Below, one piece after another: positions 10,311 through 60,278 of a DNA stretch of 64,000 nucleotides. The notes beneath the pieces were generated by a model that had not been told where the DNA came from, did not search any database, and worked only from the letters and a program-made list of their open reading frames with translations. The translations under genes and the position numbers were made by a program. The DNA lies in assembly GCA_018001935.1 (NCBI GenBank), contig JAGNHB010000005.1, positions 59,618-123,617 of the forward strand. Direction: 5' to 3'. How positions within the stretch are numbered: the first letter of the stretch is position 1; each line of letters opens with the position of its first letter. This DNA comes from Acidobacteriota bacterium. Its GTDB lineage: Bacteria > Acidobacteriota > JAAYUB01.

Positions 10311-10474
10311 CGTACGCCGGCCGAGCCGAGGCCGGCGTTGGGGCGGTACGCCGGCCGAGCCGAGGCCGGCGTTGGGGTTGCGGAGAAAACAAGGGGCAAG
10401 GGCGCGATCCCGGCCGCCCCTCCCGAGGGAACCGGCATCGGCGCTGCCGCGCGCCTCGGCTCGGCGCGCGTACC
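10311..10474. repeat. REP-like palindromic hairpin units, GTACGC-stem-GAGCCGA-stem (3 copies: 2 tandem direct, 1 inverted)
   Basis: CGTACGCCGGCCGAGCCGAGGCCGGCGTTGGGG occurs twice in tandem at 10311-10377. An inverted copy, CGCGCGCCTCGGCTCGGCGCGCGTAC, lies at ~10447-10474. The same family occurs at 56203-56313. Confidence 0.8.
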
Positions 10475-19872: not shown

Positions 19873-20325
19873 CTATTCCCCCATGCCGAAGAGTTTTTCG
19901 GGGAGCTTGTATTTTCCCGGCCACGGCTCGTAGCAGACGTCGGACGGCCCCCAGACCAACTCGAGGACTCGCCACTCCCCGTTCTTTCCCTGCTCGAGGA
20001 GCACCACGATCAGCCCGCTGAAGACCTCCGCCGCCACTTCCTCGGCGAACTCCGGCCGGGAGGCCCAGTCGATGGGCCCGCGGGTGGCGGCCTTCAGGGG
20101 CTTGAGGATCGCGAAGGCGTGGCCGTGACCGACGTTGAGCACGTCTGCCTGGAACATCACCGACTCCTTGAGCTTCGCCTCCACGGGCTTTCGGACGGCG
20201 TCCATCACGGCCTTGCGCTCCTCGCTGCCCGGCTTGGGCGTGTGGACGTCGTCCCCCGCGCGGAGAAAACCGGCCGGCAGGAGCAGGATGGCCAGGAAAG
20301 GGTATAAGACGGTTCTGACGCGCAT
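19873..20325 (-). CDS. Secreted hypothetical protein
   Basis: The ATG at 20325 gives MRVRTVLYPFLAILLLPAGFLRAG, a signal-peptide-like N-terminus. The mature part is non-repetitive. Confidence 0.55.
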   Translation of the reverse strand: MRVRTVLYPFLAILLLPAGFLRAGDDVHTPKPGSEERKAVMDAVRKPVEAKLKESVMFQADVLNVGHGHAFAILKPLKAATRGPIDWASRPEFAEEVAAEVFSGLIVVLLEQGKNGEWRVLELVWGPSDVCYEPWPGKYKLPEKLFGMGE

Positions 20326-20619
20326 GGTGCCTCCTCGAGCATGAAAGATCGGCGCAGGGTCGCCTTTCATGAATGTCATACCTTATCCTCGCGCCGAATG
20401 GTAGGAAAAAATCCGGAGCAGGAATCCCCCGGTAAAGCTGCCGGGTGCTTTCCCCGGAAGAGGGATCGATCGCGATGCGCCTTCCCGGGAAGCGGTCTGC
20501 TTGAAAAACGAAAAGCCCGCATCGAGAACCAGGCGCTGGAGGGCTTCGGCGGGGTATTTTTCGATGTTTTTGAAAAAAATCCCGAAAGCGGTGCTGGCTT
20601 TGCGTTGACAGAGTGAGCG

Positions 20620-21372
20620 GGAAGGGACGAAAGGACCAAAAGGACCAAAGGGACCCAAAGGACGGCAGGGATGGTAAGCTTGGGCTCTCAGCGGCCCATT
20701 GTGAGGGAGGGCCCGGCACGGCCCGCCGCGAGGAAGTGCCCGGCACGGCCCGCCGCGAGGAAGTGCCCGGCACGGCCCGCCGCGAGGAAGTGCCCGGCGC
20801 CGCCCGCCGAGTGGAAGTGCCCGGCGTGGCCCGCCGAGGGGGAGGGGCCCGGTGTGGCCTGCCGAGGTGGAGCGCCCGTCACGGCTCACCGTGCGGAAGT
20901 GCCCGGCGAAAAACGGCTGTTCGGCCCGTGCCCCGGCGCCGCCGACCGTTACACCCGGGAGTGTTTGCAACCCTCGACGATCGGGCGCCCCGGGAGCTGC
21001 GCGGGCACAAGGCCGGCTTTCCTCGGAGTTGCCGGCAAACCCAGACGCTCCCCGGGCGCCTCCCGGGCGCCCCCGATGCCCCACCCAGGCCGTTCGGTGG
21101 CACGTTCGGTTCTCCAGCCGCGTCGGGCGTGCCCCGGCCATGACGGGCGCCCCCCGGCCTCATCGGGCGTGCCCCGGCCGCGTCGGGCGTGCCCCGGCCG
21201 CGTCGGGCGTGCCCCGGCCGCGTCGGGCGTGCCCCGGCCGCGTCGGGCGTGCCCCGGCCGCGTCGGGCGTGCCCCGGCCGCGTCGGGTGTCCCCCGGCCG
21301 CGTCGGGTGTCCCTTGCGGTTCACGGCTGTCCTTTATGTCCTTTTGGTCGTTTTGGTCCTTTCGTCCTTTCC
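20620..21372. repeat. GGACCAAA-armed cassette 1: inverted terminal arms enclosing a 27-mer array and a 20-mer array
   Basis: The left arm is GGAAGGGACGAAAGGACCAAAAGGACCAAAGGGACCCAAAGGACGG (20620-20665). The right arm is CTGTCCTTTATGTCCTTTTGGTCGTTTTGGTCCTTTCGTCCTTTCC (21327-21372). A 27-mer array (GCCCGGCACGGCCCGCCGCGAGGAAGT) of about 6 units lies at 20711-20872. A 20-mer array (CGTCGGGCGTGCCCCGGCCG) of about 10 units, 5 of them perfect, lies at 21121-21315. Confidence 0.85.
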
Positions 21373-21398
21373 GGCAACTCTCGGCATGGAGGTGTCCG

Positions 21399-21963
21399 AT
21401 GCCCGACCGCTTCATCCCCCCGCATGGCGGTTACCGAAACCTCCTCTCCTACCAGAAGGCGGAAATCGTCTACGACGCCACGGTTTACTTCTGCGGCCGA
21501 TTTTACGCACGCGGCGACCGCACCATCGACCAGATGGTGCAGGCCGCCCGCTCGGGCAAGCAGAACATCGCCGAAGCGAGCCTGGCGTCGGGGACCTCCA
21601 AGGAGATGGAAATCAAGCTGACCAACGTGGCCCGCGCCAGCCTGGAGGAACTCCTGGCTGACTACCGGGACTTCTTGCGGACGCGCCAATCAAGCGAGTG
21701 GGCCCTGGACCACCCCGGCACGCTGCGCCTGCGGGAACTGAACCGTCAGCCCGGCGTTTCCTACGAAGCGTTTCGCCCCGGCATCGAGCACCGCGACCCG
21801 GCGGTCTGCGCCAACGTGGTCATCGGGCTGATCAAGCTGAGCTGCTACCTCCTCGACCGCCAGTTGAAGCGCCTGGAACAGGATTTTTTGAAGGAGGGGG
21901 GGGCTGCGGGAACGCATGACGCGGGTGAGGGTGGAGGTGAGGAAACGGGAGAGCGGGAGGTAG
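21399..21963 (+). CDS. Four-helix-bundle protein (23S rRNA intervening-sequence protein family, with suffix domain); apparent frameshift at a G8 tract near the 3' end
   Basis: It begins MPDRFIPPHGGYRNLLSYQKAEIVYDATVYFCGRF...SGKQNIAEASLASG..., which matches the family pattern as I recall it. As written the frame reads through to 23519, across trpA on the opposite strand. Removing one G from the G8 run at 21896-21903 gives GGLRERMTRVRVEVRKRESGR and a stop at 21961-21963. Confidence 0.65.
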
Positions 21964-21968
21964 AGAAG

Positions 21969-22333
21969 AGAAGGGACGGAAGGACCAAAACGACCAAAGG
22001 GACCAAAAGGACGGCAAAGAAGCCACAGCCCTCAACGGCCCCCTCCCCGCCGCGCCTGCCGCCCCCCGCCGCGCTGCCGGGCCTCGCCGCGCCTGCCGCC
22101 CCCCGCCGCGCTGCCGCGCCCTGTCGCCCCCTGCCGCCCCACTTGCCGCGCCTGCCGGGCCCCGCCGCGCCTGCCGGGCCCCGCCGCGCTGCCGCCCCCG
22201 CCGCGCCTGCCGCCCCCGCCGCGCCTGCCGCCCCCCGCCGCGCCTGCCGCGCCCTGCAGCCCTCTGCCGCCTCTTTGCGGCCCCCTGCCGTCCCTTATGT
22301 CCTTTGGGTCGTTTTGGTCCTTTTGTCCTTTCT
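21969..22333. repeat. GGACCAAA-armed cassette 2 enclosing a ~16-17 nt GC-rich tandem array
   Basis: The left arm is AGAAGGGACGGAAGGACCAAAACGACCAAAGGGACCAAAAGGACGG (21969-22014). The right arm is CCGTCCCTTATGTCCTTTGGGTCGTTTTGGTCCTTTTGTCCTTTCT (22288-22333). The interior is (CCGCGCCTGCCGCCCC)-like units. Confidence 0.85.
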
Positions 22334-22367
22334 CATACGATGTTCCTGCCTTGCGACCGCTTGGCCT

Positions 22368-23174
22368 TTACCCTCTCGTTGCCGCCTTCATGGCCCTTAC
22401 GAAGGCCGCCAGTTCGCTGCGCAGGGCGTCCGGATCGCCGGCGTGGCGCTCGACGAGGGCCACCATGGCCGAGCCGCTGATGGCGCCCGCGGCGCCGGCG
22501 CGAAGGGCGTCGCGGACGTGCTCCGGCTTCGAGATCCCGAAGCCCAGCAGCGCGGGGGGCGCGCCGGCGTCCCGCAGCCGGGCGACCAGGGCGCGGTGGT
22601 CGGTGCGGGCGTGCTCGTCGGCGCCGGTGACGCCGCCGCGGGTCACGACGTAGGTGTAGCCCTCGGCGAGGCGGGCCACCGCGGCAAGGTCCTCGTCCCG
22701 GCTGTTGGGGGCGGCGATCAGGACCGGCGCGATGCCGTGCGCCCGGGCGCCGGCCGCGTAAGGCCCCGCCTCCAGTGTCGGCGCGTCCGCCACCAGGACC
22801 GAGTCGATCCCGACGTCGGCGCACCGCCGGTAGAAGGCGTCCCGTCCCCGGGCCTCCACGAGGTTGGCGTAGACCAGAAGCCCGACCGGAATCTCGCGGT
22901 TCCGCTCCCGGAACCGGCGGACCAGGTCGAGGGCGCCGCCCGGTGTCATGCCGGCCTCCAGGGCCCGGATGTCGGCTTTCTGGATGGTGGGGCCGTCCGC
23001 CACCGGGTCGGAGAAGGGGATGCCCAGCTCCAGGGCGTCGGCGCCGGCGTCCGCGAGGGTGTGGAGGATGGTCAGGCTCCGTTCGGGGTCCGGGTCGCCC
23101 AGGACCGTGAAGGGGACGAAGGCCCCCTCGCCGGAAGCGGCCAGGCGGGCAAACAGGGTTTCGTATCGGGTCAT
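22368..23174 (-). CDS. trpA: Tryptophan synthase alpha chain
   Basis: MTRYETLFARLAASGEGAFVPFTVLGDPD is a typical TrpA N-terminus, and GIPFSDPVADGPTIQ is present. The ORF-track extension to 23231 is coded by hexamer repeats. Confidence 0.95.
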   Translation of the reverse strand: MTRYETLFARLAASGEGAFVPFTVLGDPDPERSLTILHTLADAGADALELGIPFSDPVADGPTIQKADIRALEAGMTPGGALDLVRRFRERNREIPVGLLVYANLVEARGRDAFYRRCADVGIDSVLVADAPTLEAGPYAAGARAHGIAPVLIAAPNSRDEDLAAVARLAEGYTYVVTRGGVTGADEHARTDHRALVARLRDAGAPPALLGFGISKPEHVRDALRAGAAGAISGSAMVALVERHAGDPDALRSELAAFVRAMKAATRG

Positions 23175-23210
23175 GCTTCCTTCCTTTTCAATCCAGGCCC
23201 CCAACCATCG

Positions 23211-23686
23211 GGGTCGGTATCGGTATCGCAATCGGAATCGGTATGGGTATCGGTATCGGTATCGGAATCGGTATGGGTATCGGTATCGGTATCGGAATCG
23301 GTATCGCTATCGGTATCGCAATCGCAATCGGCATCGCAATCGCAATCGCTCTCGCCCTCGCCGTCGATCTCGCAATCGCACCGCACCCCAGGCCCTTCTG
23401 CCCGCTGTCCTCGGGGGCAAGCCCGCGGCACCGCCCGACCACGGCTTCACACGGGCGCCCCGGGCGCCCCCGTTGCGCCAGGGCCGGTCGCAGCCGCAGG
23501 CGGTTCCCCCGGGCCGTGACCTGGCGCAGGGGCGAGGGAACGGGCGATGCCGGTGGGGATTGCGACTTCCTTGCCGGCTGCGGGAGCGAGAGCGAGGGCG
23601 AGGGCGGTACCGATTGCGATACCGATTGCGATACCGATACCGATACCGATACCGATAGCGATAGCGATACCGATGCCGATGGGAGA
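23211..23686. repeat. Hexamer-word inverted repeat filling the trpB-trpA spacer
   Basis: The left arm is a (GGTATC/GCAATC/GGAATC)n array at ~23211-23380. The right arm is the complementary (GATACC/GATTGC/GATAGC)n array at ~23583-23686. A ~200-nt unique GC-rich core lies between them. Confidence 0.85.
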
Positions 23687-24920: not shown

Positions 24921-25107
24921 GGTGGTGTTACCTCGGTGATGATGCTGAAGGAGACAGGAGACAGAAGACAGAAGTCAGGAACTGAAAGCCGGGGAGGGAG
25001 GGGAGGCGAGAACGCCGCAAGGGCGGAGGGAGGGAAAACGCAAAGGGTGCGAAGGGTGCGAAAAGTGCGAAAAGTGCGAAAGGCCAAGGGGAAAGAGGAG
25101 AGTGATG

Positions 25108-25252
25108 GGAATAATGGAAGAAATGGAAGAAATGGAAGAGATGGAAGAGATGGAAGAAATGGGAGAGATGGGAGAAATGGGAGAAATGGGAGAAATGGGA
25201 GAAATGGGAGAAATGGGAGAAATGGGAGAAATGGGAGAAATGGGAGAAATGG
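25108..25252. repeat. 9-mer tandem array (ATGGAAGAA/ATGGGAGAA), about 16 units, last ~10 perfect
   Basis: The array was read directly, including GGGAGAAAT repeated without mismatch from ~25160 to 25252. Flanking shorter arrays are GTGCGAARR 9-mers at ~25047-25083 and GACAGRA 7-mers at ~24950-24990. Confidence 0.9.
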
Positions 25253-25295
25253 GATCGCGTTGACCATGGTTGACATCTCTTAAACAGTTTTCTCT

Positions 25296-25390
25296 GCCAC
25301 AGAGGCACGGAGGCACGGAGAAACGCACTTTGTATTTCATAGACAAAACATGCTTTATGGTTCTTCTCCGTGCCTCTGCGCCTCTGTGAG
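25296..25390. repeat. CACRGAGG-word inverted repeat with AT-rich loop
   Basis: The left arm is CTGCCACAGAGGCACGGAGGCACGGAGAAACGC. The right arm is TTCTTCTCCGTGCCTCTGCGCCTCTGTGAG. The loop is ACTTTGTATTTCATAGACAAAACATGCTTTATGG. Confidence 0.8.
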
Positions 25391-25435
25391 ATTAAAATCC
25401 GGACTCTTTACGCCCGCATCACAGTTATTTGCTCC

Positions 25436-25528
25436 TGAAACCCGACACCCGAAACCCGACACCCGAAACCTGAAACCCGAAACCTGAAACCTGAAACCTG
25501 GAACCCGACACCCGACACCTGACACCTA
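25436..25528. repeat. 7-mer microsatellite (CCGAAAC/CCGACAC/CTGAAAC)n abutting the trpCF stop codon
   Basis: About 13 consecutive 7-nt units were read directly. Confidence 0.85.
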
Positions 25529-32780: not shown

Positions 32781-32818
32781 CCTGCCCTCCACTCAGATTC
32801 AAACCGGGAACCGAACAG

Positions 32819-32862
32819 GTCGGACAAGTCAGACCAGTCGGACAAGTCAGACCAGTCGGATG
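32819..32862. repeat. 9-nt periodic tandem repeat (GTCGGACAA GTCAGACCA)x2.3 in the aroAK-aroC spacer
   Basis: The sequence GTCGGACAAGTCAGACCAGTCGGACAAGTCAGACCAGTCGGA was read directly. Confidence 0.85.
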
Positions 32863-59565: not shown

Positions 59566-59592
59566 GGCTGCCCGGACTTTTTCCAACGACAA

Positions 59593-59621
59593 CGCGGGGG
59601 CTCCCACCCCCGCGTTTTTTT
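59593..59621 (+). terminator. Rho-independent terminator of the gcv operon
   Basis: The stem is CGCGGGGG / CCCCCGCG, the loop is CTCCCA, and T7 follows. It begins 28 nt after the stop. Confidence 0.85.
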
Positions 59622-59726: not shown

Positions 59727-60125
59727 GGAAAGGACGAAAGGACCAGAAGGACCAAAAGGACCAAAGGGACGGCCGGGGGAGACAAGGCGGAGACAAACAG
59801 GGGACAAAGGGAGCATCGGCGGGGGGGGCGCCGCGCGTCGCAGGCAGACCTGCCTGGCTTTGCGCTTCCCGTCACCCCAAGCCCCCGTTGCCGAAGCACC
59901 CCGCCTGCCGAAGCACCCCGCCTGCCGAAGCACCCCGTCTGCCTAAGCCCCTGTCGGCCCAAGCCCCCGTCGGCCCACGCACCCCATCTGCCGAAGCCCC
60001 CATCGGCCCAAGCTCCCCGTCGGCCCACGCACCCTTCGACCCTTCGGCTTCGTCGGCCGCGCAGGCCCCGTCGGCCTCGCCGGTTTCGTCTGTCCCTTTG
60101 GTCCTTTTGGTCCTTTCGTCCCTTC
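59727..60125. repeat. GGACCAAA-armed cassette 3 enclosing ~17-nt GC-rich tandem array
   Basis: The left arm is GGAAAGGACGAAAGGACCAGAAGGACCAAAAGGACCAAAGGGACGG (59727-59772). The right arm is CTGTCCCTTTGGTCCTTTTGGTCCTTTCGTCCCTTC (60090-60125). The interior has (CCGAAGCACCCCGCCTG)x3 followed by degenerate units. Confidence 0.85.
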
Positions 60126-60278
60126 GCACCCCCGTGTTCCCGCATGCCGAAACCGAGTGGTTTGCGCGGGGCCGCGCCGCAGTCCGCGGGGCAGCCGAAA
60201 AAGCGCTTGCCAATTGACCGGCAGCTTCCTATGATGGTCGTCAGGACCCGGGAATTCCGAGGAGGATGGAACCAACGC

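Follow-up and report, generated by a model that had tools for sequence, protein, structure and literature searches.

What ties a gene for a small helical protein to the long inverted repeats that lie on either side of it? The question is raised by a 64,000-nucleotide (nt) stretch of DNA from an Acidobacteriota bacterium (GenBank assembly GCA_018001935.1, contig JAGNHB010000005.1, positions 59,618 to 123,617), hereafter the window, in which a gene of the four helix bundle suffix domain family stands between two closely similar repeat arms of opposite orientation. A first-pass annotation had placed this gene in the loop of a stem formed by those two arms, after the model of the intervening sequences (IVSs) of 23S rRNA. 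Here we show a tight, position-specific association, extending across phyla, of this gene family with arrays of GAC cores spaced 9 nt apart. The arrangement conserved in relatives is an array or a full hairpin just 5′ of the start codon, not an enclosing stem. The gene and its presumptive translation signal lie as follows.

21399..21963, + strand, four-helix-bundle suffix-domain gene, 187 residues once one G is removed
21388..21392, + strand, GGAGG Shine-Dalgarno-like motif, 6 nt 5′ of the ATG, as read from the sequence

The gene starts at ATG 21399 and its corrected TAG stop codon occupies 21961-21963. The reading frame is broken at a run of eight G (21896-21903); seven would restore it, and the tail that is then read in the next frame, GGLRERMTRVRVEVRKRESGR, is fully conserved, the gene being intact (185 residues) in the orthologs at loci L001 and L207. 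The extra G reflects a sequencing error in the homopolymer or else a frameshift that is phase-variable or very recent. With this one-base correction, which the match requires, the protein matched the NCBIfam model TIGR04258 (four helix bundle suffix domain) with 76.3 bits against a cut-off of 40, residues 134-182 covering the full model (1-49). TIGR02436 was barely passed (24.4 bits, cut-off 24), and PF05635 gave 21.3 bits, under its gathering score of 33.8; many close homologs carry a precomputed PF05635 match. An AlphaFold model (19 homologs) is all-helical, with a predicted local distance difference test score (pLDDT) of 87 and a predicted template modeling score (pTM) of 0.80, and its best Foldseek matches in the PDB were the chains of 2RLD, the Bacteroides S23 family four-helix bundle BT_0352, at a probability of 0.96-0.99 and a weak E-value of 0.09-0.4. 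A PDB sequence search with the family profile returned chance matches only. Thus, the placement of the protein in the four-helix-bundle/IVS-protein superfamily, as first annotated, is upheld by TIGR04258, narrowly by TIGR02436, and by the fold match, with PF05635 alone falling short among the profiles.

The family is large and conserved to an unusual degree. A homolog search returned more than 8000 matches, the top 120 of which are 71-89% identical to the window protein, and close homologs are ∼75% identical across phyla; named sources include Geobacter sp. SVR, Desulfuromonas versatilis, and a Hydrogenedentes metagenome-assembled genome (MAG). The subfamily comprises 4765 clusters at 50% identity (E ≤ 0.001). 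Arg or Lys occupies 16 of the ∼60 invariant residues. Public homologs of 205-241 residues carry surplus N-terminal residues (TKGTKRT...LSSFRSLSSL) that are translated hairpin arms; the start was called too far upstream in P0006, P0016, P0017, P0022, P0023, and P0062 (211-241 residues).

The association of the gene with the arrays was measured at 80 loci obtained from a metagenome scan for related genes. A relaxed detector, defined as three GAC at exactly 9 nt, has a background of 21 arrays in 220.8 kb, corresponding to 2.3% per 250 nt. With this detector, 38 of 60 related genes had an array in the 250 nt upstream, an enrichment of ∼27-fold (binomial p ∼1e-46), and downstream in 26 of 60 loci. 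A strict arm detector, which found no arm at all in 163.5 kb of flanking sequence lying beyond 600 nt, placed an arm within 400 nt upstream in 26 of 77 loci and downstream in 22 of 64. Upstream arrays accompanied 27 of the 33 loci whose protein is at least 66% identical to that of the window and 22 of the 46 below that identity. The periodicity is also evident with no detector at all: the self-lag of GAC/GTC in the 120 nt upstream has its sole peak at lag 9, with lag-9 counts per sequence of 3.06 against 0.12 in controls for relatives at or above 66% identity and 1.67 against 0.02 for more distant ones. The position is likewise narrow, the distance from array end to start codon having a median of 23 nt (interquartile range 19-48). 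A complete hairpin stands upstream in 17 of 60 loci; an enclosing arrangement, arm(−) upstream and arm(+) downstream, was found in only 7 of 60. Gene-adjacent arrays hold three to five cores and never more (74 arrays). A fixed number of five was considered and rejected as a rule, since arrays that are ORF-less (lacking an open reading frame, ORF) or coding reach up to 23.

Individual relatives illustrate these counts. An array lies just 5′ of the homolog in Geobacter sp. SVR (L006), in a Verrucomicrobiaceae MAG (L076), where hairpins stand on both sides, and in a 3-Mb contig (L002), where a dihydrolipoyl-dehydrogenase-type (Pyr_redox) gene lies on one side of it and an EF-Tu gene on the other. 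At L143 and L147, the upstream arrays are in one orientation only and form no hairpin. The orthologous locus itself was recovered in two independent read-set assemblies, L207 (SRR11804637, TrpA 84% identical) and L001 (SRR22973708), both with the order seen in the window: trpA, hairpin, convergent four-helix-bundle gene, hairpin. Between the window and L207, the arms are 86% conserved, the gene 85%, and trpA 80%; the L207 loop is half as long as the window loop and unalignable, so the loop repeats change fast whereas the arms persist. The next relative, L208 (TrpA 71% identical), has neither the gene nor arms downstream of trpA and is, at that identity, too distant for defining the ends of an element. 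A four-helix-bundle suffix ORF in a Parachlamydiaceae contig (L011, 6512-6877) matches residues 1-102 only and then runs into arm sequence, DQKDLKDEKTRTKG; it resembles a truncated copy beside several arms.

Within the window, six arms form three hairpin cassettes, H1 (a1/a2, 20620-21371), H2 (a3/a4, 21968-22334), and H3 (a5/a6, 59727-60127), as follows.

20620..20668, + strand, arm a1, left arm of H1; five GGAC cores at a spacing of 8-9 nt; outer end GGAAGGGACGAAAGGACC, inner end GGACGGCAGG
20703..21307, no strand, H1 loop; GC-rich tandem repeats, a 27-nt unit x7.6 (20703-20907) and a 20-nt unit x9.6 (21117-21307)
21326..21371, − strand, arm a2, right arm of H1; five cores; outer end towards the gene, 27 nt before the ATG
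21968..22016, + strand, arm a3, left arm of H2; five cores; outer end towards the stop codon of the gene
22045..22271, no strand, H2 loop; GC-rich tandem repeat, 19-nt unit x12
22286..22334, − strand, arm a4, right arm of H2; five cores; 34 nt past the trpA stop codon
22368-23174, − strand, trpA, neighbor of H2
59727..59775, + strand, arm a5, left arm of H3; five cores
59868..60034, no strand, H3 loop; tandem repeat, 17-nt unit x10
60090..60127, − strand, arm a6, right arm of H3; four cores

Every arm is built of GGAC (sometimes CGAC) cores 8-9 nt apart, five of them in five of the six arms, and a single consensus fits all six, with a mutual likeness of 84-100% in pairwise comparison. This motif is far above chance frequency in the window: a 13-mer arm pattern allowing at most 2 mismatches gave 16 matches against 2.1 expected and a shuffle maximum of 7, and four GAC cores at 9-nt spacing gave 8 matches against 0.00 expected. 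The arms are polar, with an outer end GAAAGGACGAAAGGACC and an inner end GGACGGCA, and the inner ends always face the tandem-repeat loop, giving a common plan of arm(+), GC-rich tandem-repeat loop, and arm(−), three times in 64 kb. From the outer and inner ends it follows that the gene sits between H1 and H2, outside both hairpins, where a2 and a3 turn their outer ends towards it. When the six arms were compared in pairs, no privileged partner emerged: a2 resembles a3 at 40/46 positions, a4 at 42/46, a1 at 46/55, and a5 at 48/55. In this lineage, the hairpin loops are enlarged by their tandem repeats, whose units (27, 20, 19, and 17 nt) appear loosely related to one another (GTGCyyCGGC...). 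Several elements of the first-pass annotation hold, and its central one is not supported. The arm coordinates it gave, 21327-21372 and 21969-22014, are correct within ∼4 nt (21326-21371 and 21970-22015); the arms do bracket the gene tightly, the ATG following the first by 27 nt and the corrected stop preceding the second by 4-9 nt; and the three ORF-less cassettes it mentioned are present, two of them sharing arms with the supposed stem of the gene. A gene in the loop of a stem of its own is not borne out as the architecture, since the arms are interchangeable, their polarity puts it outside H1 and H2, and the enclosing geometry occurs in 7/60 loci.

An unlikely alternative nevertheless keeps the enclosing stem as the functional feature, with a2 and a3 pairing in the mRNA into a stem of ∼46 bp around the ORF that RNase III cuts, so that the locus would be a processable unit of the IVS kind. 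The a2:a3 pair (21326-21371 / 21970-22015) spans 46 nt at 87% complementarity by repeat finder; read base by base, it has six mismatches, four of which are G·T, so that + strand RNA could pair, with G·U allowed, at 44 of the 46. Moreover, a2:a3 is the minimum free energy (MFE) pairing for both 21310-22030 and 20600-22350 (z = −3.7), being nested with a1:a4 in the MFE structure of the latter; the a1-a4 duplexes are 7-15 kcal/mol stabler in + than in − strand RNA; and arrays flank the gene on both sides in some relatives. The Coxiella IVS, with an S23p ORF in the loop of a 28-bp terminal stem cut by RNase III, provides a precedent (PMC4990558). Against this stand the polarity and interchangeability of the arms, the 7/60 enclosing arrangements against 17/60 complete upstream hairpins and 38/60 upstream arrays of any kind, and the energies themselves: the summed duplexes a1:a2 + a3:a4 (−152 kcal/mol) equal a1:a4 + a2:a3 (−150 kcal/mol). 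The a2:a3 stem can form in isolated RNA but has an alternative of equal energy, and MFE and duplex energies give no choice among the arm pairings of the window; transcript ends would decide which pairs form. Whole-region folds of sense against antisense showed no strand preference (p = 0.74) and hence no sense-RNA signal. Across loci, upstream stems are ∼75-85% complementary with many non-wobble mismatches and have no sense-strand excess of G·U (41 G·T against 65 A·C). Also counting against a processed RNA is the ORF-less H3, which is flanked by a strong hairpin resembling an intrinsic terminator, T-run included (59591-59616), and by a promoter-like site, TTGCCA-17-TATGAT (60207-60235), and therefore may lie in untranscribed spacer DNA. 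No site emerged when 20300-22450 was scanned for sigma-70 promoters.

Comparison with rRNA IVSs leads in the same two directions. As in the 23S rRNA IVSs of Coxiella, Leptospira, and others, an ORF of the same superfamily has complementary sequence on both sides, and a long duplex, a possible RNase III substrate, can form; GAC-containing repeats also precede the ORF of the Coxiella IVS, there as GACAGAT x3-4 (PMC4990558), with a period of 7 nt rather than the 9 nt found here. The locus in the window differs in not being in rRNA, whereas IVSs occupy helix 25 or 45 of a 23S rRNA gene. The first-pass annotation was right on this point, since an Rfam scan found no rRNA in the 64-kb window, and a scan of 20 related loci found only tRNAs and rRNA in none. 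Rfam 15 covariance models gave no match in 20300-22500 at E ≤ 1 and none at gathering score in the window. The protein differs as well, being a 187-residue member of the TIGR04258 suffix subfamily in contrast to the S23p type of IVSs, which is ∼120 residues. Finally, the flanking repeats here are copies of a dispersed element that is also found ORF-less, so that the stem is not dedicated to the gene, and the conserved arrangement is an upstream hairpin or array, not a surrounding stem.

The arm motif also occurs far from the gene. A scan of species-representative genomes with the exact 22-mer GGACCAAARGGACCAAARGGAC gave at least 120 stretches, and the matches listed came from Verrucomicrobiota, Planctomycetota, chlamydial, Lentisphaeria, Acidobacteriota, and Hydrogenedentota MAGs and others, often with multiple loci within one MAG (for example, JAYVTN01 and JAYRNE01). 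At least 36 arm(+)...arm(−) hairpins were present among the stretches listed, with a median loop of ∼20 nt. In lower-GC genomes, the copies are intergenic, mostly in tandem or convergent spacers near gene ends. No other family recurs beside them: BLAST clustering of 1672 ORF segments gave the four-helix-bundle suffix family alone, and a profile search of 129 adjacent ORFs with a Pfam scan of 40 plausible ORFs gave, apart from two suffix genes already known, only housekeeping families met singly, PF05635 being the sole family met more than once among arm neighbors. Literature searches in the library available found no description of a function for the suffix family or of the arm motif, and motif strings matched primer sequences only. 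The 22-mer is not fully specific, some matches falling in low-complexity coding repeats (KDQ/GPK type) of unrelated genomes, as follows.

L055, 4230-4413, coding-repeat match
L092, 6135-6282, coding-repeat match
L096, 1303-1405, coding-repeat match
L068, 5901-5949, coding-repeat match
L086, 7294-7315, coding-repeat match
L012 and L025, further coding-repeat matches

Scans with the motif alone therefore overcount the hairpin family. These matches could also be taken to mean that the arms are fragments of low-complexity coding DNA with GPK or KDQ repeats, or else assembly artefacts: GGACCAAAA in frame encodes Gly-Pro-Lys or Asp-Gln-Lys, and the gene does carry a homopolymer frameshift. We find this scarcely credible, given that the window arms are short, intergenic, paired, and in both orientations and that the architecture is repeated in the independent assemblies L001 and L207.

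The neighbors of the ORF-less copies bear on a further explanation, in which the arrays are generic intergenic hairpins, terminators or mRNA stabilizers, that have no functional link to the protein and adjoin its gene merely where a small gene was tolerated or inserted. Indeed, the spacers that hold ORF-less copies, mostly tandem or convergent, adjoin unrelated housekeeping genes, and intrinsic terminators precede several of the copies (L018, L020, and H3). Such hairpins would hardly account for the ∼27-fold enrichment at this one family, with array ends at a fixed short distance from the start codon, or for PF05635 being the only family repeated among the neighbors; some upstream arrays, being in a single orientation, form no hairpin at all, and conservation falls on the core and its 9-nt spacing, not on pairing. 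We therefore judge this explanation very improbable.

The dispersed copies equally recall selfish palindromes of the REPIN kind, with the four-helix-bundle gene either maintaining and mobilizing the hairpins, as RAYT does for REPINs, or riding as a passenger. RAYT genes are flanked by inverted repeat copies, and so is the gene here, a single associated gene between inverted copies. As with REPs and REPINs, the short palindromes are dispersed, intergenic (mostly after gene 3′ ends), and many per genome, with three cassettes in 64 kb here and several loci in JAYVTN01 and JAYRNE01, and the repeats far outnumber the genes. The absence of the module downstream of trpA in L208 would fit as well. The partner protein does not fit: RAYT is a Y1 HUH transposase, whereas the protein here is a small all-helical bundle resembling 2RLD, in which no recognizable nuclease or transposase domain was found and whose profile matches are only to four-helix-bundle families. 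REPs are species-specific, in contrast to the one 22-mer conserved here across phyla, and the arms here are internally periodic (9 nt). The gene also keeps its neighbors in related genomes: it adjoins trpA in the window and L207, follows the same Pyr_redox gene in L002 and L129, and has flanks that L173, L182, and L191 hold in common. Its family is near-absent from viral contigs, which yielded a single distant homolog. The inverted arms are also reminiscent of miniature inverted-repeat transposable elements, which are marked by target-site duplications and insertion polymorphism; inspection by eye of the outer ends of the three cassettes H1, H2, and H3 showed no target-site duplication or other direct repeat. 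On balance, we doubt that the gene and its repeats are a system of this type.

The reading that we tentatively favor, as plausible though short of probable, is that the arrays are putative cognate nucleic-acid binding sites of a ring-forming four-helix-bundle protein. Several features point to it besides the association itself, the invariant Arg and Lys residues, and the orthologous locus, where arms and coding sequence are equally conserved. The core and its 9-nt spacing are conserved over pairing, as seen in the imperfect stems, the lack of a G·U excess, and the single-orientation arrays. Gene-adjacent arrays hold three to five cores. Pentameric rings occur in the fold family: the S23p protein of Xanthomonas campestris is a toroidal homopentamer, S23p proteins being without known function, and in Coxiella (GACAGAT) x3-4 lies directly 5′ of the S23p ORF (PMC4990558). 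Short GAC repeats before the ORF may by that analogy be a trait of the wider superfamily. Avd of the diversity-generating retroelements, a pentameric barrel of positive charge described as “similar to S23 ribosomal proteins,” touches one RNA stem-loop, adjacent to the gene for Avd itself, with the same residues of all five protomers (bioRxiv 10.1101/2023.10.23.563531). In the proposed mechanism, the TIGR04258 protein would form a ring, as predicted by homology with pentameric toroidal S23p and Avd, and bind the arrays, one ring protomer contacting one repeat unit. The end of the array, ∼20 nt short of the start codon, is a good position for autoregulation, and binding beside its own ribosome-binding site could allow the protein to control its own synthesis. 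Where arrays without an ORF follow the 3′ ends of other genes, the protein would act there too, or the site would have spread to those places as copies. With a hairpin on each side of the gene, the enclosing a2:a3 stem would arise as a side effect; a transcript begun inside the H1 loop could still fold into it and expose it to cutting by RNase III. As to the ligand, the location of H3, L018, and L020 downstream of terminators favors DNA for the ORF-less copies, and the intercistronic position in L002 favors transcription there.

Known systems offer partial parallels to such binding. Avd shares the fold family and a site next to its own gene; in contrast to Avd, the window gene has no reverse transcriptase or template/variable repeat nearby (nor did any come up among the genes that flank related loci, where no search aimed at them was made), similarity to PF05635 is marginal, and the site is a periodic array that is also dispersed genome-wide. 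TRAP reads GAG/UAG triplets, and iteron-binding proteins read arrays of spaced short repeats. With both, the present case shares, as analogy only, a short core at fixed spacing and a repeat number matching the oligomer; there is no homology, the period, core, and protein fold differ, and binding in the present case is predicted.

Several observations weigh against reading the arrays as sites of the protein. The relaxed detector found neither an upstream nor a downstream array in 17 of 60 loci, mostly of a clade at or below 62% identity. The gene is present in 3 of the 120 arm-bearing stretches listed, and another factor could read the arrays; the arms are strongly enriched beside family genes across metagenomes, and the gene is rare beside arms. 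Vertical co-inheritance alone could account for arm variants tracking protein clades. The ring and the one-protomer-per-unit idea are based on homology, not on this protein, and the frameshifted copy in the window may be inactive, provided that its extra G is not a sequencing error in the homopolymer.

The window holds other short-unit repeats. A 9-nt GAC array at 32815-32860 (GTCGGACAA GTCAGACCA, ∼2.5 copies of an 18-nt unit) has palindromic GTC..GAC cores and stands directly 5′ of a − strand ORF resembling chorismate synthase; the same type of 18-nt unit precedes the distant suffix homolog on viral contig L210 (∼2900-2935). The gene is flanked by trpA and by a gene whose product has a signal-peptide-like N terminus. 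The trpB-trpA spacer (23207-23380 and 23608-23680) carries inverted hexamer arrays, (ATCGGT)n / (ACCGAT)n, around a GC-rich stretch of ∼230 nt, a second hairpin type with arms of short tandem units of a different kind. A perfect 34-nt direct repeat of 1.9 copies (GTACGCCGGCCGAGCCGAGGCCGGCGTTGGGGCG) lies at 10312-10377. The region 5′ of the trpB start (25047-25519) contains a hairpin at ∼25296-25385 and three short-unit arrays, as follows.

25047-25081, (GTGCGAAAA) x4
25105-25254, (ATGGGAGAA) x17
25437-25519, (GAAACCC/GACACCC) x12

The finding is more general than the first-pass annotation held: an apparent gene-repeat partnership is conserved across phyla. Its fullest form would be a previously undescribed cross-phylum partnership, in which a ring-forming four-helix-bundle suffix protein specifically reads 9-nt-spaced GGAC arrays, autoregulates through its own 5′ array, and acts on or seeds hundreds of ORF-less hairpins at gene ends, with the IVSs of rRNA that carry four-helix-bundle ORFs being a like module, repeat arms plus ORF, that landed in rRNA helices. 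We regard this whole as possible but doubtful. The analysis in any case flags a dispersed cross-phylum repeat family that is absent from Rfam and that causes false N-terminal extensions in gene calls. A ready ligand for binding assays is at hand in (GGACCAAAA)3-5, as duplex, hairpin, or RNA, and cultured hosts exist in Geobacter sp. SVR and Desulfuromonas versatilis. The finding may also bear on the origin of rRNA intervening sequences. S23p/IVS/four-helix-bundle proteins are abundant, and a conserved companion sequence yields a concrete hypothesis on what they do; if it is true, the whole S23p/IVS-protein superfamily would gain its first testable function.

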